Origin: a virus
Taxonomy: Duplodnaviria > Heunggongvirae > Uroviricota > Caudoviricetes
Length of the DNA: 19,266 nucleotides
Reading direction: 5' to 3' (one strand)
Virus record (IMG/VR): IMGVR_UViG_2778261453_000019
Shown here: one piece after another, positions 1 to 19,266 of the stretch
Numbering within the stretch: position 1 is the stretch's first letter
How the letters are laid out: each line of letters opens with the position of its first letter
Program-made: the position numbers and the translations under genes
The notes under the pieces: model-generated
The model's database searches: none
Seen by the model: only the letters and a program-made list of their open reading frames with translations
What the model was told of the DNA's origin: nothing

Positions 1-996
1 CTAACGAACCAGCCAGACCAGCATCAGGATAATCGCGACTAACAGTATCCACAGCGCGGGACGCGTTGCCATATTTTGCAACGTGTCCATCATCGGTGGA
101 AAAGGATTAAGCAGCGGTTGCATATCACGCGGATCAATCCCTTTAACCCGCCGTTGATAAAGCTGATTAAGAATATCCTCGGCCTGGGCAGAAGAAAGCG
201 ATGATTGCGCAGAAAGACCATATTTTTGCTGGATATACGCCGATAACGCTGCCAGTTCACTGGCATCTAAAGGTTGTTTTAGCGCCATCTGTAGTGATTC
301 CAGTGTCGGCGTATTTTGCTGGCTTAGCGTCTGACGCGCCTGTAGCCAGGTCACCAGATGGTTAAACAGTTTCGCTGGAATTAACTCGCCATCTTTCACC
401 CCGGAAAGTTCCAGCATCGATTGCCAGATCTGTTTGCTGGGTTCCCCCGTTGCCGCCGCAAGTTTGGTCACCAGCTGTTTAAGCGCATTGTGCTCCGCCG
501 GTAATAAAGGACGGTCGGTCGCCTCGCGCTGCTGCGGTTGCGGAATAACCATCTTCCCTTCCTGCAACAGGGTGAGAATGGTTTTTAATTGCTCCGGTGA
601 GAGCTGATTCAGCGGCGTCTGACCAAAGTTATGACGGATATAATCCGTGACCGCCTGACGATTATTCCCCAGACGTAAATACTCCCCTAATTGCGCTAAA
701 AGCTGGCGGGCAGAATGGCTTTTTTGCGCGGCCAGCAGACGTTGCGCCAGGTTGTGTTCAGCGGCAGGGAAGTGACGCGAAAGCAGCGGTGAATCTCCCG
801 ACAGACCAATATCGTGCCTGATACCCGCCCACAGTTCTGCTCTTTGCTGTTGCGTCAGTGAGGTCACTTTCGTCATTAAGCTTTCCAGCGAAGTACGTTG
901 CTGACTGGATAAAGGCTGATTGCCCGCGCCAGACGGCAGGTTATCTCCCTGACCTGGTGGTTGCCCAGGAGGAGGGCCGGAAATAGGTTGTATCAT
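1..996 (-). CDS. flk: Flk flagellar regulator (host chromosomal gene) with C-terminal membrane anchor
   Basis: 331-aa ORF recognised from memory as enterobacterial Flk (MIQPISGPPPGQPPGQ... with hydrophobic C-terminal anchor ALWILLVAIILMLVWLVR); host-like composition; stop codon at window positions 1-3. Confidence 0.8.
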   Translation of the reverse strand: MIQPISGPPPGQPPGQGDNLPSGAGNQPLSSQQRTSLESLMTKVTSLTQQQRAELWAGIRHDIGLSGDSPLLSRHFPAAEHNLAQRLLAAQKSHSARQLLAQLGEYLRLGNNRQAVTDYIRHNFGQTPLNQLSPEQLKTILTLLQEGKMVIPQPQQREATDRPLLPAEHNALKQLVTKLAAATGEPSKQIWQSMLELSGVKDGELIPAKLFNHLVTWLQARQTLSQQNTPTLESLQMALKQPLDASELAALSAYIQQKYGLSAQSSLSSAQAEDILNQLYQRRVKGIDPRDMQPLLNPFPPMMDTLQNMATRPALWILLVAIILMLVWLVR

Positions 997-1225: not shown

Positions 1226-2017
1226 TTATGGTTCGATCGCCGTTTTGAGCCGTTGTGTTGCTACATCAAAATAATGATCACTGGTTTCTATACCAATAAA
1301 TTTGCGTCCTGCTTTCAGTGCAGCCACACCCGTTGTCCCTGACCCCATAAAAGGATCAAGGACTGTTCCGCCACTATTCACAGTCCTGACCAGTTCCGCC
1401 ATTAGTTCTTCTGGTTTTCCGGTCGGGTGCATTTTCTTTGACGGGATAACCGGGAACGTCATGCAGCCGTCGAACGGTCCCGAAGGCGATTTATCTAAAT
1501 GGCCTTTGCTGCCCCAGACGATGTATTCGCACTGATGCCGGAAATACCCGGTATGTGGTGTTCGTGACCCCCTCCCTTTGTTCCACGCAATAATGCCGCG
1601 CCATGTAAAGCCACTGGCCTGAAACGCATCGGTTAAAGCTGGTAGTTGTCGCCAGTCAGTAAATACCAGGGCATAACCGCCCGGCCTGACTGCGCGGTGT
1701 GCCTGTGCCATCCATAATTGTGTCCAGTAAGCCCACGAACGGGCGTCCATGTTTTCACCCGCGAACCCATCAAAGCGGTGAAGGTTCTCGCCGTTCAGAT
1801 ATTTTGCATGGCTGCCCTGGTTGATGCGTCCGGCCTTGTGTGTCGCCCCCGAACTGTAAGGCGGGTCAGTGATTAAGGCATCAATGCTTTCTGGCTCAAT
1901 CAGCGGCAATATTTCCAGCGCATTCCCACGACAGAGCATGGCATTGTCAGTCTGATAAACCTTAGTGTGTTCCGGTGTATGTGCTGGTTGGTGCTGGATT
2001 GCGATCCCCACGGTCAT
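1226..2017 (-). CDS. DNA methyltransferase, beta-class (motif IV DPPY N-terminal, motif I DPFMGSGTTG C-terminal); probably N6-adenine specific, orphan (no cognate endonuclease in window)
   Basis: 263-aa ORF containing DPPY at residues ~51-54 and FMGSGTTG near the C-terminus; motif order IV before I defines beta group; true start could be the internal ATG at 1939 (MLCRGN...). Confidence 0.85.
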   Translation of the reverse strand: MTVGIAIQHQPAHTPEHTKVYQTDNAMLCRGNALEILPLIEPESIDALITDPPYSSGATHKAGRINQGSHAKYLNGENLHRFDGFAGENMDARSWAYWTQLWMAQAHRAVRPGGYALVFTDWRQLPALTDAFQASGFTWRGIIAWNKGRGSRTPHTGYFRHQCEYIVWGSKGHLDKSPSGPFDGCMTFPVIPSKKMHPTGKPEELMAELVRTVNSGGTVLDPFMGSGTTGVAALKAGRKFIGIETSDHYFDVATQRLKTAIEP

Positions 2018-2159
2018 AACTCCTCATGTGTGTGGGGTGCTCGATGGCTCTCGTTATCTGGTTAAGTGTTTTGCAGCGCGGACATTTTATTTCAATGTAG
2101 TGAAATGAGGCGCGGGCAAGTAGTTTGTTGCAATTTTTGCATCGTACATTTTGCGTCAT
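1962..2159 (-). CDS. com: Com-like zinc-finger translational regulator (phage Mu Com family)
   Basis: 65 aa from the ATG at 2159 (AGAGG SD 7 nt upstream); CKNCNKLL...IEIKCPRCK closely matches recalled Mu Com (CKNCNKLL...IEIRCPRCK); 3' end overlaps the methyltransferase start by 56 nt as com overlaps mom in Mu. Confidence 0.75.
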   Translation of the reverse strand: MTQNVRCKNCNKLLARASFHYIEIKCPRCKTLNQITRAIEHPTHMRSYDRGDRNPAPTSTYTGTH

Positions 2160-2204
2160 TTGCGGCACCTCTTGTGTGGTTACTGCTGCCGATATGATAA
2201 CAAA

Positions 2205-2726: not shown

Positions 2727-2987
2727 TTAATTCTGAGGTAAAGGCAAACTCATCTGATTGTTTCCCCTGTGTGAAGCTGGCAGTTCATGCCACGGGATAC
2801 CTTCTGAAGAGTGAACGCCGGAGGCGTGTTTTGATGTGAATTTATGGAAAGCTTCCAGTGTTGAGAAGCATACGCCGCATTCCAGATTGTTACACTGGTA
2901 ATACTTTTGCCGCACGGTGTTTGAATCATTTTCCGGACGACTGGTGCGGATACGGGCAGATGCGCCACAAAGCGGACAACGGAACAT
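2727..2987 (-). CDS. ogr: Ogr/Delta-family zinc-finger late transcription activator
   Basis: 86-aa ORF MFRCPLCGASARIRTSR...YYQCNNLEC matches recalled P2 Ogr (MFHCPLCQHAAHARTSR...YHQCQNVNC) C-x2-C-x22-C-x4-C; strong SD AAGGGAGG. Confidence 0.85.
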   Translation of the reverse strand: MFRCPLCGASARIRTSRPENDSNTVRQKYYQCNNLECGVCFSTLEAFHKFTSKHASGVHSSEGIPWHELPASHRGNNQMSLPLPQN

Positions 2988-3071
2988 AGCGACCTCCCTT
3001 AACGTGGTGCTGCTACCATTCTAAGTTGTCCCAATTCAGATTCCAACTGACAGCCCTCCCTGAGTGAGGAG

Positions 3072-4142
3072 CTATCTATAGTCTTCCCATGAGTTTTCAT
3101 CGACACAAAATTCAATACCAGCATCCAGTCCATTTATGTGCAAATTAAACTCATCATTGATAAACTGGCCTTCGTCTATTTCAAAGAATAATTCTAGTTC
3201 TACTGTAAAATCCTTTTCCTCCTCCTCGTGATTAGATACGGTGTCAAAGGTATAAAATTTTCCATCCTCTTTGTCATAATAGCCGTTTGCGGTATCAGGT
3301 CCGCTGGCAGTGACATTAAAACTAACAGTAACATCAAAAGTAATTTGACAACTTTCGTCATCCAAATGAATTATTTTGGGTTCGAATTCGCTTATGTTCG
3401 TAATTTCAAAGCTATCAATCTCTGAGTCTTCCCATGTTGAAGAATTATAAGCTTCAGCAGTTTCTAATTCTTCCGTTAATTTTTGTATGATTTCTTCATT
3501 TTTGCTTTCTAAAAAACGTTCTATAAATCCAGTTCTTTCGTCATTGTGTTTGTTGTAATCATCTAGTAGTAAGTTTAGTGCTCCTATAATTATGAAATTA
3601 TCATTGTCTTCACAGTAACCTTTTAGGTCAGGGTCTTCTGAAACCACATAAATTTTTTCATTATCTCCTAGCGCGGAACGTATTGCTAAAAGAGTGAAGG
3701 CGTCTCGAAATTCGTTAGGTTTTTTCGCACTAAAGGGGCTTTTTTTATCAAAGTACATGTCTATAACCTCATTGAGGTCCACCTTCGACATATCTACAAT
3801 AGTTGTGTTTGAGTCCTCCATGAAACCATTAAATGCGCTTAATGCCTTTTCTTGAATGTCTGTTTCATTAATTTCACAAAATAGATTTTTAATATTGTCA
3901 TCTTCATATTCTTTGAGGATAACAGCCTTTCGTCGGAAATTGTTAATCCCTTTCAATGCTTCTTGTATATGCTCTATGATTTTTCGTTCAACTTCTTTAA
4001 CTACAATTGTTGTAGAAATATGCCTGAACTCATCATTTCTACATAGTTCTTCAAATGATTTTATAGTTTTTGAGTTGAAGTCCAGGTTTGCTTTTACAAA
4101 AAACTCAGTATCAATGAATACATTGCGGGTAACTAGAGACAT
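3072..4142 (-). CDS. AT-rich cargo protein of unknown function (356 aa); N-terminal domain with PIN-like acidic-residue pattern (tentative), highly acidic C-terminal domain; candidate defence/exclusion moron
   Basis: Long ORF with strong SD (AAAGGAG 8 nt upstream of ATG at 4142); visibly AT-rich versus flanking phage genes; inserted between D and ogr, which are adjacent in P2. Confidence 0.85.
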   Translation of the reverse strand: MSLVTRNVFIDTEFFVKANLDFNSKTIKSFEELCRNDEFRHISTTIVVKEVERKIIEHIQEALKGINNFRRKAVILKEYEDDNIKNLFCEINETDIQEKALSAFNGFMEDSNTTIVDMSKVDLNEVIDMYFDKKSPFSAKKPNEFRDAFTLLAIRSALGDNEKIYVVSEDPDLKGYCEDNDNFIIIGALNLLLDDYNKHNDERTGFIERFLESKNEEIIQKLTEELETAEAYNSSTWEDSEIDSFEITNISEFEPKIIHLDDESCQITFDVTVSFNVTASGPDTANGYYDKEDGKFYTFDTVSNHEEEEKDFTVELELFFEIDEGQFINDEFNLHINGLDAGIEFCVDENSWEDYR

Positions 4143-4314
4143 TTTCCAACTCCTTTTAATATATTAACCCAAATGAGGTAACATCATAAAAGATCACATA
4201 GTCACTTGTATTGGTATCTTGAGTCAAGAGAATATGATGGCGCTTACAATTTTTGTGACAAGGCTAGATGTCAGACTGTTAAGTGCTATAAGCGAGTTAA
4301 TATATTTAAGTTGC

Positions 4315-5415
4315 TCACTCTGTTTCCGCTATCCATTCCGGGATTTTTGCCTCAAGTTCAAGCTGCGTGGTAAAGCCGCTGTTATCAATGGTGTGCTCGG
4401 CTTTTGCAATAATCCAGTCCTGATTATCAATCTCGCTTTTAAATCCTGTTACCGTGCCATGCATTTCGGGGTAGAGTTCTGCACGACCACGTGCCAGCGT
4501 GATGGAGAATGATGCGGCTCCGCGTTGTAGCTGCTGCCACTTTGCCGCCGCTGCGCGTCTTGCTGCCTGTTCGTTCTGATAAGTCTTGCGTAACACAAAC
4601 ACGTTGCCTTCCGCACCTTCCATATAGTCACCTTCACGGCTGCTGCTTTTCTCCTTTTTCGGTTTGCGGCGTTTCACGCTGACTTTTTTCTTTTTCCCGT
4701 AATTAAGATCAAGCCAGTAAGCGCGTACCCCCGTATACGCTTCGCGGTCAGCAATGCGGAACTGATGGCGATCGCCACTGCTGCGCGTGATGGCGAACGA
4801 GGGCAACGGCTGGCCCTGTGCGTTCACGCCACCGCCTGGCATGATGAATAACAGATTACCGCTTTTTACCGTGGTGATTGCGCCCAGCATTTCCGCCATG
4901 CGCGTAAGGAAGGACATGTCGCTTTCTTCGGTCTGGTCGGCGTGGTCGATTTCAATATCCATCAGCATTTCGCTGATTTGTGGTTTCAGACCGTACCGAT
5001 GAGCGATGGCGGATACCACGCGCTCAACGGTCACATCATGCCAGGACACCTCACGTTTAACGTTAAATTCATCCCGAAAATCTGCGCTTCTGGCTGAAAC
5101 AGTCAGCCTGTCCGGCGGTCCTTCGTGAGCGATTTCATCAACAATGTAAGTGCCTTTTTCTGTCAGCGGTTCTCCTTTCCAGCCAATGAGAACCGTCAGG
5201 CGCGCGCCCCGTGGCGGTAGCTGCAACTGACCATCCGCATCATCCAGCGTGATGGTGAGCTGGTCCGCTTCAAATCCCCGGTTGTCGGTCAGTGACAGAC
5301 TCATCAGGCGCTCTGCCACGCCGGACAGCGTTTCCCCCTCCGCGAGAATATCAAAATCCGGCATTTTCACGGGGTCTGTGCTCTGTCTGAGCAATTGCAT
5401 GGTGGTGTCGGTCAT
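4315..5415 (-). CDS. D: P2 gpD-like tail protein (late control gene D)
   Basis: Family recognised from translation; start set at internal ATG 5415 (MTDTTMQ...) preceded by GGGAGGG SD rather than ORF-track start 5436. Confidence 0.85.
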   Translation of the reverse strand: MTDTTMQLLRQSTDPVKMPDFDILAEGETLSGVAERLMSLSLTDNRGFEADQLTITLDDADGQLQLPPRGARLTVLIGWKGEPLTEKGTYIVDEIAHEGPPDRLTVSARSADFRDEFNVKREVSWHDVTVERVVSAIAHRYGLKPQISEMLMDIEIDHADQTEESDMSFLTRMAEMLGAITTVKSGNLLFIMPGGGVNAQGQPLPSFAITRSSGDRHQFRIADREAYTGVRAYWLDLNYGKKKKVSVKRRKPKKEKSSSREGDYMEGAEGNVFVLRKTYQNEQAARRAAAAKWQQLQRGAASFSITLARGRAELYPEMHGTVTGFKSEIDNQDWIIAKAEHTIDNSGFTTQLELEAKIPEWIAETE

Positions 5416-5571
5416 CTTTCCCTCCCTGTGCGGCATGGTCGCATGTGCGTGCGGAGTGGGTTACTGCTTTTTGTTGTCGCCGTGGCGGGAGAACGGCGCA
5501 GGGGTGAGATTACGCGCGTGGTGGGTGATGATTGTTGCCGAATCATTTAACGGATACAAGGGGCTGAAGCT

Positions 5572-6756
5572 ATGAGTGAAACTCGTTTTCATGGTGCCCG
5601 TGTCACGGAAAGTACCGACCTGGTAACAGCGATTAATGATGTTGATTCCAGCGTTATCGGTATCGTGGCAACGGCGGATGATGCGGATGCGGAGCTGTTC
5701 CCGCTGAACAAGCCCACACTGCTGACCCGCGTCAATGACGTGCTGGGAAAATGCGGGACTACGGGGACGCTTTATCGTGCGCTTAAGGCTATCGCAGACC
5801 AGGTGAGCACAAAAGTGATCGTCGTTCGCGTGGCTGAACACAAAGAAGAAGACGGTAGGACGCAGGATCAACTGGTTATCGGTGGTTCTGAATCTGACGG
5901 CAGCTATACGGGGATGTATGCGCTGCTTGTTGCAGAGCAGGATGAAAGCATCGGATACCGTCCGCGTATTCTGGCCGCGCCGGAGCTGGACACGGAGGCG
6001 GTGACAAAATCCCTGTGCGTGATTGCGGGTAAACTGCGCGCGTTTGTGTATGCCTCATGTCATGACTGTAACACGATGGCTGAGGCAATTACCTACCGCC
6101 AGAAATTCAACGAACGTGAGGTGATGCTCTTATGGCCGGACTTCATCGCCTACAACCCGAAAAGTGGCAAAAACGAAACGTTCCCCGCGCCTGCCTATGC
6201 GTGCGGCCTTCGTGCGTACATTGACCATGAGCAGGGCTGGCACAAATCGCTGTCCAACGTTCCGGTTAAAAATGTGCTGGGGATGTCCAGGCATGTGTTC
6301 TGGTCGTTGCAGGCCGAAGACAGTGATGCCAACAGCCTCAACAACAAAGAAATCACGACCATTATTCGTCGCAACGGGTTCCGCTTCTGGGGCAACCGCA
6401 CACCGGAAACGAACGCCTACATCTTTGAGGTGTATACCCGAACCGCACAGGTGCTGGCTGATTCAATTGCGGAAGCGCAGTTTGAAACCATCGACAGTCC
6501 ACTGACGCCTGCGAACGTGAAAGATGTTATCAGTGCCATCAGGGCAAAACTGGATTCACTGGTTACTGCCGGGAAACTGATTGGGGCGTCGTGCTGGTAT
6601 GACGTGGTGGATAACGGCACCACGAATTTACGTCAGGGGCGCGTGCGTATTCGCTACAAATATACGCCTGTTCCCCCGCTGGAAGACATGGAGCTTTACC
6701 AGTCGTTTACTGATGAATTCTTTGGTCCCGCATTTGCGGTGCTGGGAGGTGCCTGA
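5572..6756 (+). CDS. FI: Contractile tail sheath protein (P2 gpFI-like)
   Basis: 394 aa (P2 FI ~396 aa); sequence family recognised; followed by tube gene with TGATG overlap. Confidence 0.9.
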   Translation: MSETRFHGARVTESTDLVTAINDVDSSVIGIVATADDADAELFPLNKPTLLTRVNDVLGKCGTTGTLYRALKAIADQVSTKVIVVRVAEHKEEDGRTQDQLVIGGSESDGSYTGMYALLVAEQDESIGYRPRILAAPELDTEAVTKSLCVIAGKLRAFVYASCHDCNTMAEAITYRQKFNEREVMLLWPDFIAYNPKSGKNETFPAPAYACGLRAYIDHEQGWHKSLSNVPVKNVLGMSRHVFWSLQAEDSDANSLNNKEITTIIRRNGFRFWGNRTPETNAYIFEVYTRTAQVLADSIAEAQFETIDSPLTPANVKDVISAIRAKLDSLVTAGKLIGASCWYDVVDNGTTNLRQGRVRIRYKYTPVPPLEDMELYQSFTDEFFGPAFAVLGGA

Positions 6757-7268
6757 TGGCTGTACCAAAACATCTTCGCTTTTTTACGCTGTTTGTGGAT
6801 GGTGAAAACGAAGTGGGTAAGGTGACGTCCGTCACTCTGCCTAAGCTGACGCGCAAAACCGACAGCTACCGGGGTGGTGGCATGATGGGTGCGGTAAGTA
6901 TTGATCTCGGTCTGGACGACTCCGCGCTTGATGCGAGCTTTGTCATGGGGGGCGCAGTTCGTGAGCTGTTCCTTAAGTATGGCGGCACGATTGACGGCAC
7001 GCTGCTGCGTTTTGCGGGTGAATACTACACCGATGCAGAAAGCGACTTGTATGAAGTCGAAATGCGCGGACGTGTGACGGAAATTGATATGGGGGAAGCC
7101 AAACAGGGCGAAGCCACATCACACACTTACGCCATTAAAAACACCTACTACAAGCTGAGCGTTAACGATCGCCCGTTGTGGGAGATTGACCTGCTGAACT
7201 TCATTTACCGGAAGGACGGCAAGGACATTGTGCCCGATCGCATCCGTTCCGCGCTTGGGCTTGGCTGA
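6756..7268 (+). CDS. FII: Tail tube protein (P2 gpFII-like)
   Basis: 170 aa, position after sheath gene; family recognised. Confidence 0.9.
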   Translation: MAVPKHLRFFTLFVDGENEVGKVTSVTLPKLTRKTDSYRGGGMMGAVSIDLGLDDSALDASFVMGGAVRELFLKYGGTIDGTLLRFAGEYYTDAESDLYEVEMRGRVTEIDMGEAKQGEATSHTYAIKNTYYKLSVNDRPLWEIDLLNFIYRKDGKDIVPDRIRSALGLG

Positions 7269-7322
7269 TAAGTAATATGCAGGCGGCGCAGTGCGTCGCC
7301 TCTGACTGAAAGGAGTTTCCTG

Positions 7323-7688
7323 ATGAAAGAGACGAAAAACATCGATACCGAAAACACGGTAGTTACTGACACTGTGAAAGAAACCAGTGAGCGTGGCGTA
7401 AAACTTACCCAACCAATTGAGCGAGGCGGCGAAAAAATCACGTATGTGGAGATCACCGGGGCTATTGAGCAGGCTGGATCTCTGCGAGATTTGTCGCTGT
7501 CTGATGTGCTGAATCTGAAAGCGGAATCCATGTTTACGCTGCTGTCACGCGTGACATCACCGCGACTGGATGAAGTGACGATCAAAAAAATGGCATCCCG
7601 TGACTTTATTCAGTTATGTGTGGTTGCCGTAAATTTTTTGAGCGGTGCGGACTCTGGCGGGAAGAACGAACAGGCGACGGAAGCCTGA
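7323..7688 (+). CDS. E: Tail assembly chaperone (P2 gpE-like), zero-frame product
   Basis: 121-aa ORF between tube and tape-measure genes with AAAGGAG SD; contains slippery TTTTTTG. Confidence 0.8.
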   Translation: MKETKNIDTENTVVTDTVKETSERGVKLTQPIERGGEKITYVEITGAIEQAGSLRDLSLSDVLNLKAESMFTLLSRVTSPRLDEVTIKKMASRDFIQLCVVAVNFLSGADSGGKNEQATEA

Positions 7689-7852
7689 TCACGGTTGTGT
7701 GCTTTGAGTACATAGAAGACTTTGTGGCGGATATTGCCGCCATTTTTAACTGGTCGCCCGCCGAAATCTTCATGATGACGCCCGGCGAAGTGGTTAGCTG
7801 GCGTGAGCGGGCGGCACTTCGCAGCGGGAATGCAGACAATGAAGACTCTTGA
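7323..7852 (+). CDS. Tail assembly chaperone E+E' fusion made by programmed -1 ribosomal frameshift at T TTT TTG (7634-7640)
   Basis: The -1 frame ORF (7616..7852) overlaps the E 3' end and is entered exactly at the TTTTTTG heptamer; conserved E/E' (lambda G/GT-like) architecture. Confidence 0.7.
7634..7640 (+). promoter_or_regulatory. Slippery heptamer TTTTTTG for -1 programmed frameshift
   Basis: Read directly; matches canonical P2 E/E' slippery sequence. Confidence 0.7.
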
Positions 7853-9266
7853 TATCCGGGTCGCTTTCAGCGCCGTTGACAGGCTGACCCGGCCTGCCGA
7901 AAACGCCCGCCGCCTGATGGGGCAGTTTGGTGACTCCATCCAGCGAACGCAGGGGGCGATCAAAAATCTCGAGCGTCAGGCGCGATCATTTGAGCGCGCC
8001 CGCGACGCTGTCAGTAAAGCGGATGCGGGCATCGTGAAAGCACGACGCCAGCTTAACGCCCTTAATCAGTTACAACGCACGGGTACAGTGCTCAGCGAAA
8101 AACAACAAAAGCTGATGCGGCAGTTAAGCACCCGGCTTGAACGCCTGAATGAATCGCGCACACGGGAAATTCAGAAAATGCGGGAGCTTGGCGGAGAGCT
8201 GAAACGCCACGGCATTTCCCTGACAGGCAGCGATAACACCATCCAGCAGGCCATCAGACGCACCGAACAGTACAACAACCAGCTTGAACGCGAACGGCAG
8301 GCGCTTGCGCGTGTAACGCGGGCGCGTGAGCGGTATTCGCGCGTGCAGGAAACCGCGGGAAAACTGAAAACAGGTGGTGCGCTGGCAATTGGTGCGGCAG
8401 CGGCTGGCGGCTATGCTGCCGGGCGTTTTTTGCAGCCTGCGATCGGGTTCGGGAAAGAGATGTCCCGCGTTCAGGCGCTGACGCGAATCGACAAAAACAG
8501 CCCGCAGTTTAAGGCGCTGCGTGAGCAGGCGTTAAAACTTGGCTCTGAAACGCAGTTCACCGCAGGCGATGCCGCCAGTGGGCAGGCATTTCTTGCAATG
8601 GCTGGCTTCACACCACAGACCATTCAGGCTGCGCTCCCTGGCGTACTGAGCATGGCAACGGCTGGCAGTATGGACCTCGGTGAGACGGCGGATATTGGCT
8701 CAAATATTCTGACGCAGTTCGGTCTTTCTGCTGACCAGATGGACCGGGTCGGCGACACACTCACCGCAGCGTTTACCCGTACCAACACTGACCTTCGCGC
8801 ACTGGGTGAAACCATGAAATATGCAGGTCCGGTGGCGGGTAAGCTGGTTGATGAGACGAAAAAACGTATTGGCCCCGGCGATATTGTCTTTAAGAACCTG
8901 CCCCGCGCACTTGCCGTTCGTGGGGAGTGGCAGGAGCGGAAGATTGCGCAGGTCAGTAAGCCTGCTTCCGCAATCAACATCACACCCGTGGTCCCGACTC
9001 CTCTGCCTCCGGCGCTGGTCCCTGTTGTTGCGGCCAGCTCCCGCCCGGTGGCGGAGGCCATACGATCGCCAGTGGCATCAGTTCCTGCAACTTCCCGTAA
9101 CCGGGAGCCTGTTGTCTCCGGATTTGGCGGTGAAATTCATGTTCATCTGCATAACGTTGTTACGCAGAATCCCCGCGAACTGGCGAAACTGGTCGGTGAA
9201 ATGGTCAGGGCAGAAATGGAACGGCGCGCCCGTGCCGGGCGTGGCAGTTTTTGCGATAAAGATTGA
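7839..9266 (+). CDS. T: Tail tape measure protein (P2 gpT-like), apparently shortened (~475 aa)
   Basis: Coiled-coil-like N-terminal region, Gly/Ala-rich hydrophobic segment, LGETMKYAGPVAG tape-measure core motif; ORF-track start 7803 (GTG), ATG at 7830 or 7839 more likely. Confidence 0.8.
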   Translation: MKTLDIRVAFSAVDRLTRPAENARRLMGQFGDSIQRTQGAIKNLERQARSFERARDAVSKADAGIVKARRQLNALNQLQRTGTVLSEKQQKLMRQLSTRLERLNESRTREIQKMRELGGELKRHGISLTGSDNTIQQAIRRTEQYNNQLERERQALARVTRARERYSRVQETAGKLKTGGALAIGAAAAGGYAAGRFLQPAIGFGKEMSRVQALTRIDKNSPQFKALREQALKLGSETQFTAGDAASGQAFLAMAGFTPQTIQAALPGVLSMATAGSMDLGETADIGSNILTQFGLSADQMDRVGDTLTAAFTRTNTDLRALGETMKYAGPVAGKLVDETKKRIGPGDIVFKNLPRALAVRGEWQERKIAQVSKPASAINITPVVPTPLPPALVPVVAASSRPVAEAIRSPVASVPATSRNREPVVSGFGGEIHVHLHNVVTQNPRELAKLVGEMVRAEMERRARAGRGSFCDKD

Positions 9267-9278
9267 GGAGTCATGGCC

Positions 9279-9767
9279 ATGATGATGATCTACGGCATGT
9301 TTGTTTTTGAGCTGCGCACATTGCCGCATCAGCAGTTACAGCAAAATAAAAGCTGGCGGCATGTGAAAAATGAACGCGTTAACCGTTCAGCAAGCTGGCA
9401 GTATATCGGTGCAGGTGATGACCGCATCGTTCTTTCTGGTGTGCTTTATCCTGAAATTACAGGTGGCGAAGTGTCGCTGTCTCTGCTGACCACGCAGGCG
9501 TATACAGGACGGCCCTGGCCTCTGATTGATGGCGTCGGGCAGATTTACGGCATGTATGTCCTGACCGAAACGAATACGACCCGTTCCGAGTTTGATCGCT
9601 ACGGTAAAGCGAAAAAGATAGAATTTTCACTGACTCTTGAACGCTGTGATGAGGATTTGCGGGAGCGCCTGCAATCCTCATCGTTCAGCGATATGTTGTC
9701 CGGCTTCAAAGATAAGGTGACATCATCCCTTAATAGCGCGGCCAGCTCAGTTAAGGGGCTGCTCTGA
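9279..9767 (+). CDS. U: Tail protein (P2 gpU-like)
   Basis: ~162 aa ORF directly after T; GAGGAG SD placed for ATG at 9279 (ORF track start 9273). Confidence 0.8.
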   Translation: MMMIYGMFVFELRTLPHQQLQQNKSWRHVKNERVNRSASWQYIGAGDDRIVLSGVLYPEITGGEVSLSLLTTQAYTGRPWPLIDGVGQIYGMYVLTETNTTRSEFDRYGKAKKIEFSLTLERCDEDLRERLQSSSFSDMLSGFKDKVTSSLNSAASSVKGLL

Positions 9768-9843
9768 TTTAACGTATGTCGCCAATTTCCTGATGAAGGT
9801 GACTGGCGACTTGCTGTTGTATGTCCTTCTCAGAAAATTGTTT

Positions 9844-9872
9844 TTGAATAACAAATAACAGGATTTTATAAT
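9844..9872 (+). promoter_or_regulatory. Near-consensus sigma70 promoter: TTGAAT (9844-9849) - 17 bp - TATAAT (9867-9872)
   Basis: Hexamers and spacing read directly; ~50 bp upstream of acetyltransferase start. Confidence 0.65.
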
Positions 9873-9923
9873 CTCTTAACCTTATAACATGTGTGGTCTG
9901 AAATAATAATTAAGGAGATTATC

Positions 9924-10496
9924 GTGCTGTCTTACTTAATGGCAATTCACTTTGTTTTATTTGGGAACTCTACTAATTTAAAAAACTTCTGGAAATATGA
10001 AGTAATTCGGCGGAAACGTATGGATATCTGGAGGCTTTTAAGAGAGAAAAAACAGCGTAACCGGAATTTCCTTTTCTGGTGGCGGTTGGCTAACGAAATG
10101 TATATTAATGGTAATAAATTACATAAGAAAGCAGCCAAAAAGTTAAACAGTAAAATAATTAACAAATTTGGTTGTGAAATTGGATTGGGCGCAAATATTG
10201 GAAAAGGGTTAACAATTCCCCATCACACTGGAATTGTTGTTCATTTTGCTGTTGATGCTGGTGAAAATCTGGTGTTACGACAGAATACTACCATTGGACA
10301 GATAGATGGTGACATGCCTGGTTCAAGAGTAAAAATTGGTAGTAACGTTGATATCGGAGCTAATTGTTGCATCATTGGATTATCACGTAAAATTGGGGAT
10401 AATGTAAAAATAGGTGCAATGTCTTTTATAAATAAAGATATACCATCGAACTGCACATATATAACTAAAAAGAGCGGTGCTGTATTGTATAAATAG
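9924..10496 (+). CDS. Hexapeptide-repeat (left-handed beta-helix) acetyltransferase, serine O-acetyltransferase/CysE-like; AT-rich moron
   Basis: Repeating [LIV]-G-x-x-x-x hexapeptides (IGLGANIGKG, VKIGSNVDIGANCCIIG, IGDNVKIGA) and HHTGIVV resembling CysE core; GTG at 9924 preceded by AAGGAG (9912-9917); ORF track start 9891. Confidence 0.8.
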   Translation: MLSYLMAIHFVLFGNSTNLKNFWKYEVIRRKRMDIWRLLREKKQRNRNFLFWWRLANEMYINGNKLHKKAAKKLNSKIINKFGCEIGLGANIGKGLTIPHHTGIVVHFAVDAGENLVLRQNTTIGQIDGDMPGSRVKIGSNVDIGANCCIIGLSRKIGDNVKIGAMSFINKDIPSNCTYITKKSGAVLYK

Positions 10497-10503
10497 AGTA
10501 CAT

Positions 10504-10541
10504 AAAGCCATCGATATTTCTATCGATGGCTTTTTCTTTTT
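10504..10541. terminator. Strong rho-independent, probably bidirectional terminator (AAAGCCATCGATA-TTTC-TATCGATGGCTTT then TTTTCTTTTT)
   Basis: Perfect 13-bp stem, 4-nt loop, T-tract on plus strand and A-tract upstream; lies between convergent acetyltransferase and G. Confidence 0.8.
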
Positions 10542-11118
10542 ATTGTGGGGCGACAGGCCACTCAATATCTGCTGCTACTGTTGTATCAACACGATGCAAC
10601 AATACCCGATATGTCTTCCATGCAGCCAGTAACGATGTCTCTTCCTCCGTCGCAATATCTAAATCTATAGCATCCTGAAGTGGTGCAATATGCTCACTGG
10701 CTACCTGCATCAGGCTGTTTTTTGTTTCTTCCGCCTCCCTTATCCGAAACAGTTTTTCTGCTTCTGCATCTTTCACCCAGGATGTGCCGTTCCACTTCTG
10801 ATACTCTCCATACGGCGACAACCAGGTAACATTTTCCGGTAATGGACCGAGTTCAGAAATAAATAACGAGTCCCCTGATGCCACGTCATAAACCGTTTTA
10901 CCCCGATGGTCTTCAACGAGATGCCACGATGCCTCATCACTGTTGAAAACGGCCACGAAGCCAGCCGGAATATCTGGCGGGGCAATATCGGTACTGTTTG
11001 CAGGCAGACCTGTATGAGGTGGAATGTATGCATCACCTTCACCAATAAACTCATTGGTTCCGGTCAGTAGATTATAAATTTTTATGGTCCGTGATTGTTC
11101 ACTCATTCTGAATGTCAT
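10540..11118 (-). CDS. G: Tail fibre assembly chaperone (P2 gpG / Tfa-like)
   Basis: 192 aa immediately downstream of tail fibre gene with overlapping start/stop; family recognised. Confidence 0.8.
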
Positions 11119-13250
11119 TATGCAAGCCTCACAATATAGTTAAATGCGATGTTTTTTACGGTGTTTTCTGCGTTCCCCGTAGCATTAACGGTGATGGTGT
11201 GTCCGTGGGGACCAATAATGACAGAATGGGCATGAGCACCAATGCCGATAGTGTGGTTATGGGCACCGATATATACATTGTGAGCATGCCCTCCTGCGCT
11301 CGACGTGGTACCAGTACCTAACGCAGCGTTATAACCGGCTGATACACCATTCCCCGCGCCAGTGTGACCAACAGGTATATTGTGTGAATGAGCTCCTGCG
11401 CTATTTGTGGTTTTTGTGCCGTAATCAAATGAACTGGTCGTTTTAGTACCGTAATCAAACGACGATGTGGTTTTCGTCCCCAAATCAGTACTGGATGCGC
11501 TGGCGCTGTGGGTGTGCGATTTAATGCCGTCCTGTTCCTGAGACAGTACGGCACGACCACTGGCAGGTTTGCCCTTGATAGTCCAGCCACGCATATCAGG
11601 GATCACGCCTGACGGATAAGCGACTGCAAGTTTCGGGTATGCAGATTTGTCAAAAGTCTGCCCCTGCATCAGGGCATAACCAGACGGAACGGTATCTGAT
11701 GGCCACGGAATCGGTGCACCGACTGGATAAAACTTTTCAGGAGGATGAGCCGAGGTGTAAAGCTGCGCCCACGGCGACCAGTTTGCGTCGGTCGTATCCC
11801 GTCGTGAACGAATAAATGCCGGAGCATGAGCACCGCTTATACCACTCCAGCCGATGAGTAATTCGCCTTCGCCAACGGCTGTCATCCCTTTCAGGTGAAT
11901 GATATTTCCATACGCTGTTGGATATCCGTTGTTATACGCCTCGTATAACTCCAGACCTGTGGCCCCCTGCATATTATCTGTCAGGGCGGTCACCCGACCT
12001 TTTGAAGCCAGATTAACTGACGATACTGCTGTCCCATCTGACGGTAACGCCCCGATCTCTGATGCTGTTGGCTTATTCCTGGAGTTATAGTCCCTTCGCC
12101 AGCCAGGAGCATAAGCATCACCATGATTAATATAAGTAAATTGAGCATTAGGGATGCCTTCACCGCTGGATGTACTCGGTGTGGTAATGCGTATGGTCAT
12201 TGCGCCGCGGGTGCCAATAACTTCCACAACAGCACCTGCAAGACAAATATTTCCGCAACCTGTATCTGTAATGACCTTATTACTTGCATAAGCCCATGAG
12301 CCTTTGCACATCCAGTAAGGATGGTTAAATGCCCCCTGACTCTCTAGCCAAAAAATCAACTGCGCAGTTGTCCATGCTTCACTATCTCCACCAATATTCA
12401 GCTCTGCACTATATGCACGGCAGGCACCGATATTTTTCGTAAAGGTGTCTTTGTCAGAGATATCCTCACCATTCTTAGCTTTCTGCAGACGTTTTTCAGC
12501 ATTGTCATAGGCAGCTTTTACTGCATTTGATGTTGCCGCCAGCGTTTCAGACGTGCTGTTGGTTGCACTGCTGAGCTGGACTATCCCTTTTTGTGCCGTA
12601 GTGGCGTCCTGAGCGGTATATTTTCCGTTAGCCATGTCATACGCTGCCTTAACCGCTTTCGGCGTTGCAGCCAGCGTTTCAGAATCGCTGTTAGTGGCGC
12701 TACTGAGTTGAACAAAGCCTTTTGCGGTCAGCGAGGCGTCCGGGTGACGTCGTGACTGTTCATGTTCTTTCAGTTTGTCATTCACGTAATCCACTGTGGC
12801 CATAACCATGGTGTTATCCACGGTAAGCGCCACGGTGGCAGTGCTGGATACGGTCAGAATGGTGCGAAATGTTTGTGCACGTCCGGATCCTTCGGCAACG
12901 GTTGGCTTGTAACTTTCGGCAGTATTGCCCACCGCGATCAAATCGCCGTGCTCATCAAATACACCAATTTCCCGGATCCAGAATCCGCCCGTTTCAGGAG
13001 GAATAACCAGCTCCGCAATAATGCGGTTCTGATGTGTTGCGTCCAGGATGACGCGATTAACAGTATGTCGCCACACCTCATGCACCAGACGGGTCTGCTT
13101 ACTGTCTGGTGTGGGCAACGTGCCGCCACCGTCGCCCACGGCCATGTGAGTCAGGCGGACAGGATTACCATCTGGCGCGGCTGCCTGAGCTAATTTTTTG
13201 GCACCAGTATCAGTGATAATGGTTTTAAATTTTCGTGTTGTGGTACTCAT
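11118..13250 (-). CDS. H: Tail fibre protein (P2 gpH-like) with C-terminal His-x-His-rich tip domain
   Basis: 710 aa; N-terminal region typical of P2 H; C-terminus carries HSH/HAH/HNH/HAH/HGH motifs and a 10-aa tandem repeat. Confidence 0.9.
11401..11486 (-). repeat. Three imperfect 30-bp tandem repeats inside the tail fibre gene, encoding [10 protein letters not shown] / [10 protein letters not shown] / [10 protein letters not shown]
   Basis: Verified by translating the minus strand in the H frame. Confidence 0.8.
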
Positions 13251-15026: not shown

Positions 15027-15604
15027 TGCGGGCCTCCTGTCGAATCGCTGCCACCTTTAACGCCACCGTGTTTATGCGTATGCACTGTGATGCCGTTTGA
15101 GGTGAAATTGCCGCCGCTGTGCGTGATATTGCCGCTCATCTTTCCCCCTTTTGTGACGTCAAGCGTCGCCGTTCTCAGAAGGTCTGTGCATTCCACGACG
15201 GGCGTATCCAGTGTCACGCTGACGGATGCCTGCAGGGTGGCTGTTTTCATGCCGCTGGCGCTCAGTGCGCCTGCGTCCGCGTCGTAGCGGAACACCGCGC
15301 CATCCGGCGCGCTGACCACGATTTCTTTCAGGCTTTTGCCGGGGGCCGGACTGGCATCACTCCACAGGCTGCCAATTATCATGGCGGTTTCCGGGTTGCC
15401 GCCAATGCAGGCAATTACCACCTGTTCGCCTGGTGATGGCGGCAGCCACACATTGAAGGCTCCCGCGCGCGTGGTGTTCCAGCGCAGCCAGCCTGTTTCC
15501 AGTTCGCCGCTGCGAACGCGCACGCGCCAGGACTTCTCGTCAACTTCAGAGATGATCCCGGTGCGGATGATATTGCTCAGCAGTCGCATGAGTTCTGCGC
15601 TCAC
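15023..15604 (-). CDS. V: Baseplate central spike protein (P2 gpV-like)
   Basis: 193 aa, overlapping starts/stops with S and W. Confidence 0.8.
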   Translation of the reverse strand: MSAELMRLLSNIIRTGIISEVDEKSWRVRVRSGELETGWLRWNTTRAGAFNVWLPPSPGEQVVIACIGGNPETAMIIGSLWSDASPAPGKSLKEIVVSAPDGAVFRYDADAGALSASGMKTATLQASVSVTLDTPVVECTDLLRTATLDVTKGGKMSGNITHSGGNFTSNGITVHTHKHGGVKGGSDSTGGPQ

Positions 15605-17952: not shown

Positions 17953-18153
17953 CTACTCCCCCCACAACTGAATCATTTCTCGTTTCTTCTTCTCCGGCTC
18001 CGGCATCTCCACTTCCTGCCCGGCGTCCAGAAATACCTGCTGACAGAGTCCGGGGTTGGCATCCAGCACCTTTTCGGTGACGCCCTGCGTCGTGCCGTAG
18101 TACCGGAAACAGAGCGAATCCACGGTGTCGCCTTCCAGTGCCTTCACTTTCAT
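17953..18153 (-). CDS. X: Tail protein X (P2 gpX-like, LysM-like)
   Basis: 66 aa MKVKALEGDTVDSLCFRYYG...LWGE resembling recalled P2 X (MKTFALQGDTLDAICVRYYG...LWE). Confidence 0.8.
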   Translation of the reverse strand: MKVKALEGDTVDSLCFRYYGTTQGVTEKVLDANPGLCQQVFLDAGQEVEMPEPEKKKREMIQLWGE

Positions 18154-18374
18154 CAGCACAACTCCGCAAAGATTCGCGGGCGACACAGAATGTCAGAGAT
18201 GGCCCAGCTCACATCGCGCCACAAATCCGATGTCTGTATATCCAGTGCGTCCGCCCGGCGGTCGCCCTTGTCCGTTGTGTCCGCATCGCGGTAACGCTCC
18301 AGAATCAGGGCGCGTGTGGCGGTATAAAAGCGCGTGCGTAAGGTATTTGACAAAAAATCGGTAGCGGTGGCCAC
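18153..18374 (-). pseudogene. C-terminal fragment of head completion gene (P2 gpL-like); N-terminus deleted
   Basis: Open frame upstream of X with TGATG overlap as in P2 L/X; overlaps the integrase 5' end, no head genes beyond. Confidence 0.45.
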
Positions 18375-19266
18375 TGAACGCTACATCATGGCGAACGCTG
18401 AAAAGCGGGAATATATACAGGGCTACCGTGATCGTCGAACGCTAAATGATTTGCTTGAGTTGTGGTGGATGTATCACGGCCAGCACAGGCGTAAGGCGGA
18501 AGAAGACCGAAAACAACTGCGCAACATAATCAATGAGCTTGGCGCTGATATGCAGGCTGTGGATCTTGATAAGCTGAAAATTATCGCGTGGCGTTCTCAA
18601 AAGATAGCTGAAGGATTGAAACCGTCATCTGCTAACAGGTACATGAATCGGTTATCCGGAATGTTTACCGTGCTGAAAAAAATAGGTCTTTGGGATGCAG
18701 AACATCCAGTAAGGGGAATTTCTATTCTTTATGTATCTCCACGAGAAATGGCGTTCCTGTCACAGAAGGAAGTGGCGCTATTGCTCGATACACTGGAGGG
18801 CGACTACTGGCGTGTTGCGCTTTTGTGTTTAAGCACAGGGGCGCGCTGGAGTGAAGCTTGTAAGCTTCGTGGTGAACAGATAGTTCATAACCGTGTAACG
18901 TTTCTTGAAACCAAAAATGGCCGGAAGAGAACAGTGCCAATTTCGCAGGCAGTTTGTGAGGCGATCAAAACCAGAGAAACAGGCGGCTTGTTTGAGGTGA
19001 AGTACCGGGAATTCTGCCTGGCGCTGAAAAGAGTTAAGCCCGATTTACCAAAAGGCCAGGCTGCACATGTGCTGCGGCATACGTTCGCCAGCCATTTTGT
19101 GATGAACGGAGGAAACATTATTGCGCTTCAGAAGATTCTTGGTCACGCAACCATTCAGCAAACAATGGCATATGCGCATTTTGCACCGGATTACCTGCAG
19201 GATGCGGTGGCCCTTAATCCGCTGAAAGGTGGCGTAAGTGTCCACGCAGTGTCCACGGGGGATTAA
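18334..19266 (+). CDS. int: P2-type tyrosine integrase, N-terminally truncated (arm-binding region missing); catalytic domain intact
   Basis: 310 aa aligning to recalled P2 Int from RRKFDKKSEAV onward; H-x-x-R box and catalytic Tyr (MAYAHFAP) present; in-frame stop at 18325-18327 just upstream of GTG start. Confidence 0.85.
   Translation: MRKVFDKKSVAVATERYIMANAEKREYIQGYRDRRTLNDLLELWWMYHGQHRRKAEEDRKQLRNIINELGADMQAVDLDKLKIIAWRSQKIAEGLKPSSANRYMNRLSGMFTVLKKIGLWDAEHPVRGISILYVSPREMAFLSQKEVALLLDTLEGDYWRVALLCLSTGARWSEACKLRGEQIVHNRVTFLETKNGRKRTVPISQAVCEAIKTRETGGLFEVKYREFCLALKRVKPDLPKGQAAHVLRHTFASHFVMNGGNIIALQKILGHATIQQTMAYAHFAPDYLQDAVALNPLKGGVSVHAVSTGD

Follow-up and report, generated by a model that had tools for sequence, protein, structure and literature searches.

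The F operon of phage P2, pF-FI-FII-E-E'-T-U-D-ogr, contains the same genes as the stretch of DNA analysed here, at 42-49% identity, and P2 and the outgroup phage phiCTX are colinear. In the P2 record, pO and pF have a -10 element at +52..+58 and mapped starts at +64/+65, and pP and pO share one activator site, with mapped starts 55.5 nt to either side and -10s at equal offsets. TGT-N12-ACA is the consensus of the four P2 late promoters, as cited in PMC3931495. Among closer relatives of this locus, P88 is inducible and electron microscopy shows its head and tail to be normal (PMC5285337), and phiSM is an active phage (PMC6456863). The P88 paper has no wording on inversion, orientation, rearrangement or synteny, we found no discussion of a pD promoter or of a clade-defining inversion in the P88 or phiSM papers, and a literature search that covered few subscription journals returned no explicit description of the inversion.

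We analysed a stretch of 19,266 nucleotides, referred to as the window. By sequence, the window represents what is left of an E. coli prophage and is about 97% identical to P88 (Xuanwuvirus). The window-P88 identity, 97.4%, covers the shared late region only, as the head, replication and immunity genes, some 15.6 kb in all, are gone; this loss, private to the window, takes in the head and early genes, beginning with the 5' half of L and including immunity. For a genus, ICTV asks for roughly 70% nucleotide identity over the full-length genome.

A first-pass annotation had placed the FI-U block on the strand opposite to D, G and H, and Pfam and blastp orthology to P2 confirmed this. The minus strand carries D, G, H and the baseplate genes, the plus strand FI, FII, E/E', T and U (5572-9767), with D divergent from FI and U convergent on G. 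Blastp against the P2 orthologues gave 49% identity for D, 45% for FI, 42% for FII and 46% for U. Pfam GPD was assigned to frame 4315-5436(-), within which the most likely start of D is the ATG at 5415, from a Shine-Dalgarno GGGAGGG and the 366-aa D of P88. With this start, the D-FI spacer, previously given as 135 bp, becomes 156 bp (5416-5571); the right junction, previously placed at 9768-9825, takes up the entire interval 9768-10539. The ogr gene lies downstream of D on the same strand, its translation containing the four-cysteine motif CX2CX24CX4C, and a PIN-domain cargo gene, which had no match in PADLOC or NCBIfam searches, sits between the two. Inspection of E found a T-run slippery stretch, AAATTTTTTG, at about 7627-7637. 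Coordinates are collected in Table 1.

Table 1. Features of the late region in the window, in order of position.
Feature	Positions	Strand	Remarks
ogr	2727..2987	-	Ogr/Delta-type zinc-finger late activator; Pfam PF04606, E 5e-14; 42% identity to P2 Ogr
D (baseplate hub/late control D)	4315..5415	-	Pfam PF05954; 366 aa, ATG 5415
D-FI spacer, predicted bidirectional late promoter region pD/pF	5416..5571		156 bp; left 'breakpoint'
pD -10-like hexamer GACCAT	5435..5440	-	mirror position, +52..+57 from other half-site
Ogr-type activator site TGTCGCCGTGGCGGGAGA (TGT-N12-AGA)	5475..5492	+	putative; preceded by TTTTTGT
pF -10-like hexamer GATGAT	5527..5532	+	+52..+57 from TGT
FI, tail sheath	5572..6756	+	Pfam sheath domains; 45% identity to P2 FI
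FII, tail tube	6756..7268	+	Pfam PF04985, E 7.5e-47
E and E+E', tail assembly chaperones	7323..7852	+	E = 7323-7688, blastp to P2 E
E' frame	ORF 7616-7852, -1 frame	+	Pfam GpE match
T, tape measure	7839..9266	+	475 aa; Pfam tape measure on frame 7803-9266
U	9273..9767	+	Pfam PF06995 (GpU), E 5.5e-39; last gene of FI operon in P88-type lineage
Hairpin, candidate FI-U terminator	9778..9810	+	directly 3' of U stop; -22 kcal/mol, z -3.7
Cargo hexapeptide-repeat O-acetyltransferase	9924..10496	+	190 aa from GTG 9924; GC about 34%
Bidirectional intrinsic terminator	10504..10533		13-bp stem, between convergent units; z -7.0, -7.3 per strand
G, tail fibre assembly	10540..11118	-	Pfam; gene order as in P88, PhiR44_2
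H, tail fibre	11118..13250	-	Pfam; G and H end the long minus-strand late operon

From D through U, the window is 97.4-97.5% identical in nucleotides to P88 and PhiR44_2, and its P88-group relatives show 95-98% identity over D-FI-FII-E-T-U and the baseplate and lysis genes. The window order, ogr-D(-) / FI FII E E' T U(+) / G H I J W V S R lysis X L(-), matches the order annotated in P88 and PhiR44_2 and recurs in 520873, 500465-2, P884B11, Citrobacter phiSM and Chuche, all of them independently sequenced phages that were induced or spontaneously active. One blastn match crosses the D/FI junction in 13 Xuanwuvirus records and, at 67-72% identity, in Novemvirus, Reipivirus and KSP20; the order in Reginaelenavirus and Senquatrovirus is also that of the window. 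The layout is therefore found in at least four ICTV genera besides Xuanwuvirus and in Serratia phage KSP20. A scan of IMG/VR with the D protein gave only 98-99% identical relatives, and we replaced it with distant blastn and a scan of species-representative genomes with a D-protein alignment. The latter found 80 D-containing loci, 74 of them classifiable. The P88-type order was present in 61 of the 80, across many Enterobacterales genera, and in every classifiable locus whose D is at least 60% identical to that of the window, and the P2-type order in 13 of the 80, all with a D about 50% identical to the window's. To take all P2-like phages as colinear was too narrow a premise: the P88 group natively has another order, and P88, PhiR44_2, phiSM and other intact relatives naturally share it with the window, the very finding that the first-pass annotation had named as one that would refute its reading. 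We conclude that the inverted block is real, but that it is the normal, ancient and ordinary gene order of the P88 group. We assign a probability of roughly 90% to the explanation as a whole, namely a native P88-type layout, derived from one ancestral inversion, with a bidirectional pD/pF late promoter.

The inversion proposed in the first-pass annotation stands insofar as the block pF-FI-FII-E-T-U is inverted relative to P2 and fixed, but not as an event of the window's own genome. Being inverted relative to P2 is what would speak for a recent inversion private to this genome or prophage, a reading that we consider exceedingly improbable, as the order and the junction sequences occur in independent phages, in five genera and in 1355 of 5426 complete E. 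coli genomes in which the left (D/FI) junction is contiguous. Against those genomes the junction spacer of the window shows 97-99% identity and no breakpoint of its own, and the records sharing it do not derive from a single misassembled template. Practically no weight is left for the suggested assembly artefact, in which part of the contig would have been joined the wrong way round. Apart from the difference to the P2 map, all that might favour it are the deletion in T and the L'-int fusion, both unseen elsewhere, which leave the assembly open to some question at those points; the left junction, by contrast, and the right one including the acetyltransferase gene (495 complete E. coli genomes) are unbroken in hundreds of finished genomes as well as in phages whose DNA was sequenced from particles. 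Phase variation by a site-specific DNA invertase, of the kind seen in the Mu G, P1 C and e14 P segments, could be imagined from P88, which encodes a DNA invertase directly adjoining U, but the ORF adjoining U in the window is a hexapeptide acetyltransferase. Both earlier negatives for the window, on an invertase gene and on inverted repeats at the junctions, were correct: Pfam found no recombinase gene in 4200-11200, and a search for inverted or direct repeats at the two junctions found no inverted pairs joining 5416-5571 to 9768-10539. In P88, moreover, the inverted duplicate is the tail-fibre C-terminus/assembly cassette and not FI-U; we rejected the P88 invertase as a flipper of FI-U, since it relates to the fibre cassette. 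PhiR44_2 has the same order without any invertase, and a single orientation relative to D, never the opposite one, was found in every Xuanwuvirus record and each of the 61 P88-type loci, making a switch of this kind wholly implausible to us. The best inverted pairs that the search did return, 19-20 nt long, 75-84% complementary and intragenic, are expected by chance, and the pair 5067-5085/9539-9557 (19 nt, 84%), short, imperfect and intragenic, was taken as a chance match.

It is also very unlikely that an FI-U module came from another phage and was inserted reversed, possibly several times. P2-family genomes are mosaic, and the neighbouring fibre/assembly/acetyltransferase cassette, 93% identical to Ro157c2YLVW and JL22, has clearly been exchanged with unrelated phages. 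However, divergence from P2 is alike for FI, FII and U (42-46% identity) and for D, V and W (44-49%), the identities of D and FI correlate with r = 0.96 over the 60 P88-type loci scored, those of D and U correlate with r = 0.90 in the P88-type clade, and pF keeps the P2 geometry. The matching divergence of FI-U and D/V/W, together with the co-divergence with D, argues for a single event rather than module swapping.

The most parsimonious reading of these sequences is one old inversion of pF-FI-U relative to P2 and phiCTX. The segment pF-FI-FII-E/E'-T-U would have been inverted once in the ancestor of a large Enterobacterales-infecting branch of the Peduoviridae, with breakpoints at the U/D boundary and, on the other side, between the pF activator site and the cargo locus that follows G, and the inverted layout would have been passed on vertically ever since. 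D would thereby have been set back-to-back with the upstream side of pF. Because the Ogr site is a dyad, already bidirectional at P2 pP/pO, the one site at 5475-5492 could then serve two divergent late promoters, pF running rightwards into FI-U and pD leftwards into D, with possible read-through toward ogr. Transcription of FI-U would stop at the terminators in the U-G gap, converging with the long O...S-V...H-G operon.

In four lineages, the length of the D-FI spacer is 151-157 bp. Of 61 P88-type spacers (60 loci and the window's own), 56 have TGT-N12-A(C/G)A at a constant position, counts that are not independent because the spacer sequences are phylogenetically related; the other 5 lack the exact pattern at the expected place and may be spaced differently. 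That the triplets on either side stay constant around a variable N12 argues for constraint. A perfect TGT-N12-ACA is present in KSP20 and many other loci, and in the entire P88 genome TGTTGT-N12-A(C/G)A occurs twice only, in the P/O and D/FI spacers. The centre of the site is 74-88 nt from the FI ATG and a median of 69.5 nt from the D ATG; the automatic choice of D start was wrong at a few loci (such as L091 and L092, 39.5 nt), and we therefore used the median and hand-checked cases. In a site-anchored alignment of 59 unique spacers, gAttAT is conserved at +52..+57 on the FI side (1.8-1.9 bits) and so is, on the D strand, AAtCAT, whose A and T positions carry 1.4-1.7 bits, and a GC-rich stretch lies upstream of the pD hexamer, as at other late promoters. 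The window site belongs to the class of activator sites that are annotated in the P2 record and fits a P2-type Ogr-dependent promoter dyad centred about 55 nt upstream of the predicted start, and the element itself encodes an Ogr/Delta zinc-finger activator (PF04606). The FI transcript is predicted to start near 5539 and the D transcript near 5428, which would give D a short leader of about 13 nt. From this pattern, we infer that the spacer is a bidirectional late promoter driving both D and FI-U, with binding by Ogr, transcription starts on both sides and dependence of D on the spacer promoter.

The order could be native and the site nevertheless serve pF alone, with D under some unrelated promoter or expressed in another way. 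Since P2 has a site ahead of FI, one is to be expected here anyway, and the case for pD is built from conservation and geometry. We regard this as unlikely, though, given that a -10-like hexamer is conserved at the exact mirror offset, that the distance from site to D start is conserved, that the D-side hexamer has the GC-rich stretch of other late promoters, and that D has no same-strand upstream gene for co-transcription. Extending the bidirectional promoter to the clade, we somewhat favour the view that all late genes of P88-type phages run from two dyad sites, P/O and D/FI, both bidirectional. If so, the symmetry of the activator site would explain why the inversion was tolerated, and D would have obtained late control by its placement behind pF.

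The U-G gap, 9768-10539, holds a hairpin, the cargo acetyltransferase gene and a bidirectional terminator, and may be the cargo-insertion spot of the P88-type lineage. Relatives have canonical A-run/stem/T-run hairpins in the same place after U. A predicted sigma70-like promoter (9844-9872) precedes the acetyltransferase gene, which is annotated as 'serine acetyltransferase' in strain 94_0962.

Two junctions of the window, the T deletion and the L'-int fusion at 18327-18331, were seen nowhere else. Compared with T of P88 (935 aa), T of the window has an in-frame 1380-bp deletion at the 10-bp direct repeat GGTAAGCTGG (8838-8847), and this deletion junction is absent from all 1374 complete E. 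coli genomes with the same T region. We considered tailocin-like domestication of the remnant and set it aside, as the window is 97-98% identical to intact prophages and both deletions are private; this combination points to recent decay, not selection.

As a rearrangement of the window's genome, the original claim leaves little to pursue. 'P2-like' phages have two stable late-gene layouts. The inverted one, carried by roughly one in four complete E. coli genomes and spread over many genera of the Enterobacterales, is the mark of a clade both large and common; for annotators and synteny-based prophage tools it is no anomaly to flag. A symmetric activator site would let an operon be split and flipped with late control retained, a modest point that nevertheless offers a testable example of promoter architecture constraining or permitting phage genome rearrangement.

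Compared with known systems, pF of the window resembles P2 pF in having an activator dyad some 56 nt ahead of the transcription start, which in the window is predicted, and a -10 at +52..+58, and P2 likewise has D followed by ogr and a cargo locus adjoining G. In P2, however, the block is colinear with H-G and D, U overlaps D, D has no promoter of its own, and a separate pV promoter and orf30 are present, whereas in the window S and V overlap and the O and V operons are fused. The predicted pD/pF pair is like P2 pP/pO in having one dyad in a divergent spacer, starts about 55 nt to either side and mirror-image -10s, and the P/O spacer of the P88 group shares the TTTTGTTGT-N12-AGA motif with the D/FI spacer; it differs in that pP/pO controls terminase/portal versus capsid and has mapped starts, where those of pD/pF are inferred. 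P88, PhiR44_2, 520873, 500465-2, P884B11 and phiSM are identical to the window in order and strands, and the D-FI spacer of the P88 group is identical to the window's, including the TGT-N12-AGA site. Unlike the window, P88 has a T without the 1380-bp loss and a complete L-to-immunity region, and the PIN-domain gene between ogr and D sets the window apart from its P88 relatives. The U-G interval contains the acetyltransferase gene in the window and an invertase with an alternative fibre cassette in P88, and is empty in PhiR44_2. Finally, Novemvirus (phiT5282H), Reipivirus (ST16-OXA48phi5.4), Reginaelenavirus (3LV2017), Senquatrovirus (SEN4) and KSP20 have D(-)/FI FII E T U(+)/fibre genes(-) and, like the window, a spacer of ~150 bp with the conserved site and a terminator hairpin right after U, but their D proteins are only 62-77% identical, and their cargo between U and the fibre genes consists of DUF262 genes, a macro-domain protein, or none.

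The ORF listing and Pfam scans bore out the strand pattern of the first-pass annotation, with D, G, H and onward on the minus strand and FI through U on the plus strand. Each window gene is the orthologue of its P2 namesake, at identities of 49% (D), 45% (FI), 42% (FII), 46% (U), 46% (V), 44% (W), 54% (J) and 61% (I). The D start is most probably ATG 5415, which has GGGAGGG just upstream and gives a 366-aa product, the same as P88 D; the ORF finder's start, ATG 5436, falls within a predicted promoter.

Features of the window; genes are from the ORF listing and Pfam scans, -10-like hexamers from the 59-spacer alignment.
Feature	Position	Strand	Details
flk	1-996	-	host gene
DNA methyltransferase	1226-2017	-	N6/N4 type
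Com-like ORF	1962-2168	-	small zinc finger
ogr	2727-2987	-	
PIN_12-domain gene	3072-4142	-	356 aa, low GC (33%)
D	4315-5436	-	ORF finder extent
D-side -10-like hexamer	5440-5435	-	consensus AAtCAT, mirror +52..+57; window GACCAT
Ogr-type activator site	5475-5492		TTTTTGT-TGTCGCCGTGGCGGGAGA (TGT-N12-AGA), within 156-bp spacer
FI-side -10-like hexamer	5527-5532	+	consensus gAttAT, +52..+57; window GATGAT
FI	5572-6756	+	sheath
FII	6756-7268	+	tube
E/E'	7323-7852	+	
T	7803-9266	+	tape measure ORF; gene T 7839-9266
U	9273-9767	+	
Hairpin directly after U	9778-9810		-22 kcal/mol, z -3.7
Sigma70-like promoter	9844-9872		of acetyltransferase
Hexapeptide O-acetyltransferase	9924-10496	+	GTG start, low GC (34%); ORF 9891-10496
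Bidirectional terminator	10504-10533		strong, 13-bp stem, 3' of acetyltransferase
G	10540-11118	-	
H	11118-13250	-	
I, J, W, V, S, R, lysis genes, X, truncated L	from 13253	-	
Integrase	18334-19266	+	

This order is not confined to the window but is common to intact relatives. In megablast against phage genomes, P88 and PhiR44_2 match window 4300-11200 at 97.4-97.5%, and 520873, 500465-2, P884B11, Chuche and Citrobacter phage phiSM match it at 95-96%. The records of P88 (Xuanwuvirus, Peduoviridae) and PhiR44_2 read D(-), FI FII E E' T U(+), G H I J W V S R(-), the order and strands of the window. Induction of E. coli K88 yielded P88, which lyses hosts and whose head and tail look normal in electron microscopy (PMC5285337); phiSM is a phage with spontaneous activity (PMC6456863). 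A 556-bp probe matched the D|FI junction without a break, at 95-99% identity, in 1355 of 5426 complete E. coli genomes, and a 1191-bp probe found the U-acetyltransferase-G stretch contiguous in 495 complete E. coli genomes. Because both junctions recur in so many complete genomes, neither an assembly artefact, which the first-pass annotation had offered as an alternative, nor a recent inversion local to this genome can account for the layout, and both are excluded.

The arrangement, with D divergent from FI-U (P88-type), is also old. Single alignments at 67-72% identity span the divergent junction (sensitive blastn, query 4800-6200) in Enterobacter phiT5282H (Novemvirus), Klebsiella ST16-OXA48phi5.4 (Reipivirus), further Klebsiella phages and Serratia KSP20, and the layout is found in Klebsiella phage 3LV2017 (Reginaelenavirus) and Salmonella phage SEN4 (Senquatrovirus). 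An alignment of seven D proteins then served as the query against bacterial genomes, one for each species, and the 80 loci returned were sorted by local tblastn: 61 were P88-type, 13 were P2-type, with FI-U colinear with D, and 6 received no call (FI missing or off contig). Among classifiable loci the split tracks D similarity exactly, every locus with D at least 60% identical to the window's being P88-type and every P2-type locus having D about 50% identical to it. P88-type hosts include Escherichia/Salmonella, Serratia, Erwinia, Pantoea, Klebsiella, Enterobacter, Kosakonia, Brenneria, Pectobacterium, Edwardsiella, Xenorhabdus, Photorhabdus, Providencia, Morganella, Hafnia, Yersinia and others.

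Both P2 and phiCTX, a Pseudomonas outgroup, have the colinear layout, so that order is ancestral. The simplest history would be one inversion at the base of the clade followed by vertical inheritance. Import of the FI-U module in reverse orientation, perhaps repeatedly from a foreign source, is unlikely because FI and U co-diverge with D (identity to the window across P88-type loci, D versus FI r = 0.96, D versus U r = 0.90), and the divergence of the inverted genes from P2 is neither above nor below that of their neighbours. Flipping pF-FI-FII-E-T-U in a P2 map of ...H-G-(cargo)-pF-FI...U-D-ogr, where pF is the late promoter toward FI-U, gives ...H-G-(cargo)-U...FI-pF|D-ogr. This map equals the window's minus-strand reading exactly, with the cargo locus adjoining G and the D-ogr adjacency kept, so that the left 'breakpoint' is the join of the upstream side of pF to the D start. 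An invertase-driven switchable segment is excluded: the window holds no such recombinase and, as already noted at first pass, no inverted repeats joining the two junctions; every relative examined has a single orientation; PhiR44_2 shows the layout without any invertase; and the P88 invertase adjoins a duplicated, inverted fibre cassette and does not flank FI-U. We conclude that 'inversion' correctly describes the segment relative to P2 but not as a local event: this is the ordinary, native, long-fixed layout of a large, common Peduoviridae branch already represented by classified phages.

Among the loci of the scan, a P88-type prophage whose D shares 99% identity with that of the window sits on a 226-kb contig labelled 'Vagococcus sp. 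WN89Y' (NZ_JBQPOM010000071.1); the label, a Gram-positive genus, probably reflects a contaminated or mislabelled assembly. Two Yersinia loci lack FI-FII-E-T: Yersinia sp. HM-2024 has V, J, I and then U directly upstream of D, and Yersinia nurmii has V and J there, with U and I not detected. These look like deletion variants or another compact arrangement.

At the right junction, P88 homology stops six bases past the U stop codon. Where the window has its hairpin, P88, PhiR44_2, phiT5282H, 3LV2017 and SEN4 carry canonical A-run/GC-stem/T-run hairpins, which look like bidirectional terminators between convergent operons. The U-G gap is a cargo site, holding a DNA invertase and an alternative fibre/assembly cassette in P88, a DUF262 gene and one other gene in ST16-OXA48phi5.4, and nothing in PhiR44_2; SEN4 also lacks cargo here, with a macro-domain gene instead between its fibre-assembly and fibre genes. 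The window's acetyltransferase, which occupies the same gap, is EpsC/CysE/WcaB-like, scoring under the family cut-offs, and may be a lysogenic-conversion gene modifying surface polysaccharide. Its cassette, G and the C-terminal part of H are 93% identical to fibre modules in vB_EcoM-Ro157c2YLVW and JL22, two unrelated phages, and form a horizontally exchanged module.

The ogr-D interval looks like a second cargo hot spot: it is empty in P88 and PhiR44_2, holds a ParA gene in E. coli 94_0962, and in the window has the inserted PIN_12-domain gene, possibly a defence or toxin gene, which had no PADLOC or NCBIfam match. At the flk-proximal prophage end, the Com-like ORF overlaps the start of the methyltransferase gene, reminiscent of Mu com-mom, and contains a perfectly palindromic TGT-N12-ACA (2067-2084).

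The window, bounded by the stop codons of flk and int, is a prophage remnant in decay that keeps tail, lysis, ogr and int genes. T encodes 475 aa, versus 935 aa in P88, owing to an in-frame deletion of 1380 bp (460 codons) between two GGTAAGCTGG copies; its junction (8838-8847) was found in 0 of 1374 complete E. coli genomes with this T region. If the shortened T were expressed, a tail of about half normal length would be expected. L is cut at 18327-18331, leaving its C-terminal half fused to the prophage's own integrase (region 18153-19266). Strain M19 carries the same integrase about 15.6 kb farther along, past L, M, N, O, P, Q and early genes; relative to M19, the window lacks M, N, O, P, Q, the 5' half of L, replication genes, cox and C. 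None of the 5426 complete E. coli genomes contains this junction, which reflects either a genuine deletion private to the window or an assembly error. The remaining tail ORFs, all intact, share 97-98% identity with their counterparts in live phages, which suggests recent decay; we found no evidence of domestication in this remnant. The close relative in strain 94_0962 has a truncated D (801 nt, annotated as VgrG/Pvc8 family; region 10454-11307). Prophages of this type appear to have decayed in many of their chromosomal copies, and in differing ways.

The D-FI spacer is 151-157 bp in the window, P88, PhiR44_2, phiT5282H, ST16-OXA48phi5.4 and KSP20, which share TTGTTGT-N12-A(C/G)A despite diverged flanks; TGT-N12-ACA is the consensus of the four Ogr-dependent P2 late promoters (PMC3931495). 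TGT-N12-A(C/G)A stands at the same place in 56 of 61 P88-type spacers (60 loci and the window's own), its triplets fixed and N12 variable, with its centre 74-88 nt (median 82) from the FI start codon and a median of 69.5 nt from that of D. When 59 unique spacers were aligned on this site, the remaining positions of strong conservation fell into two elements, both -10-like hexamers. Their offsets are those of P2 promoters with mapped starts: pO (GAAACT at +52..57, start +64), pP (TAGCCT at mirror +52..57, start +64) and pF (GAAAAT at +53..58, start +65). Of three activator binding sites annotated with transcription starts in the P2 RefSeq record, that at 3057-3087 serves divergent pP and pO, which start 55.5 nt from its centre on each side. 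The complete P88 genome has exactly two copies of TGTTGT-N12-A(C/G)A, one each in the P/O and D/FI spacers (positions 14233, 33272), and the window encodes an Ogr-type zinc-finger protein.

From the conserved motif and hexamers, the P2-like geometry and the presence of ogr, we infer that a single Ogr site would drive two divergent late promoters, pF (start near 5539) and pD, toward D (start near 5428). A dyad site already bidirectional at pP/pO would give D late control once placed behind pF, a possible reason the inversion was viable. Because S and V overlap (15601-15604), with no orf30/pV interval in this lineage, two dyad sites may control all four late transcription units. We give the bidirectional promoter together with two-site control a probability of about 0.6; it is the one modestly new point here, of limited surprise. 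P2 has a pV/orf30 interval, whereas in the window the O and V operons appear fused.
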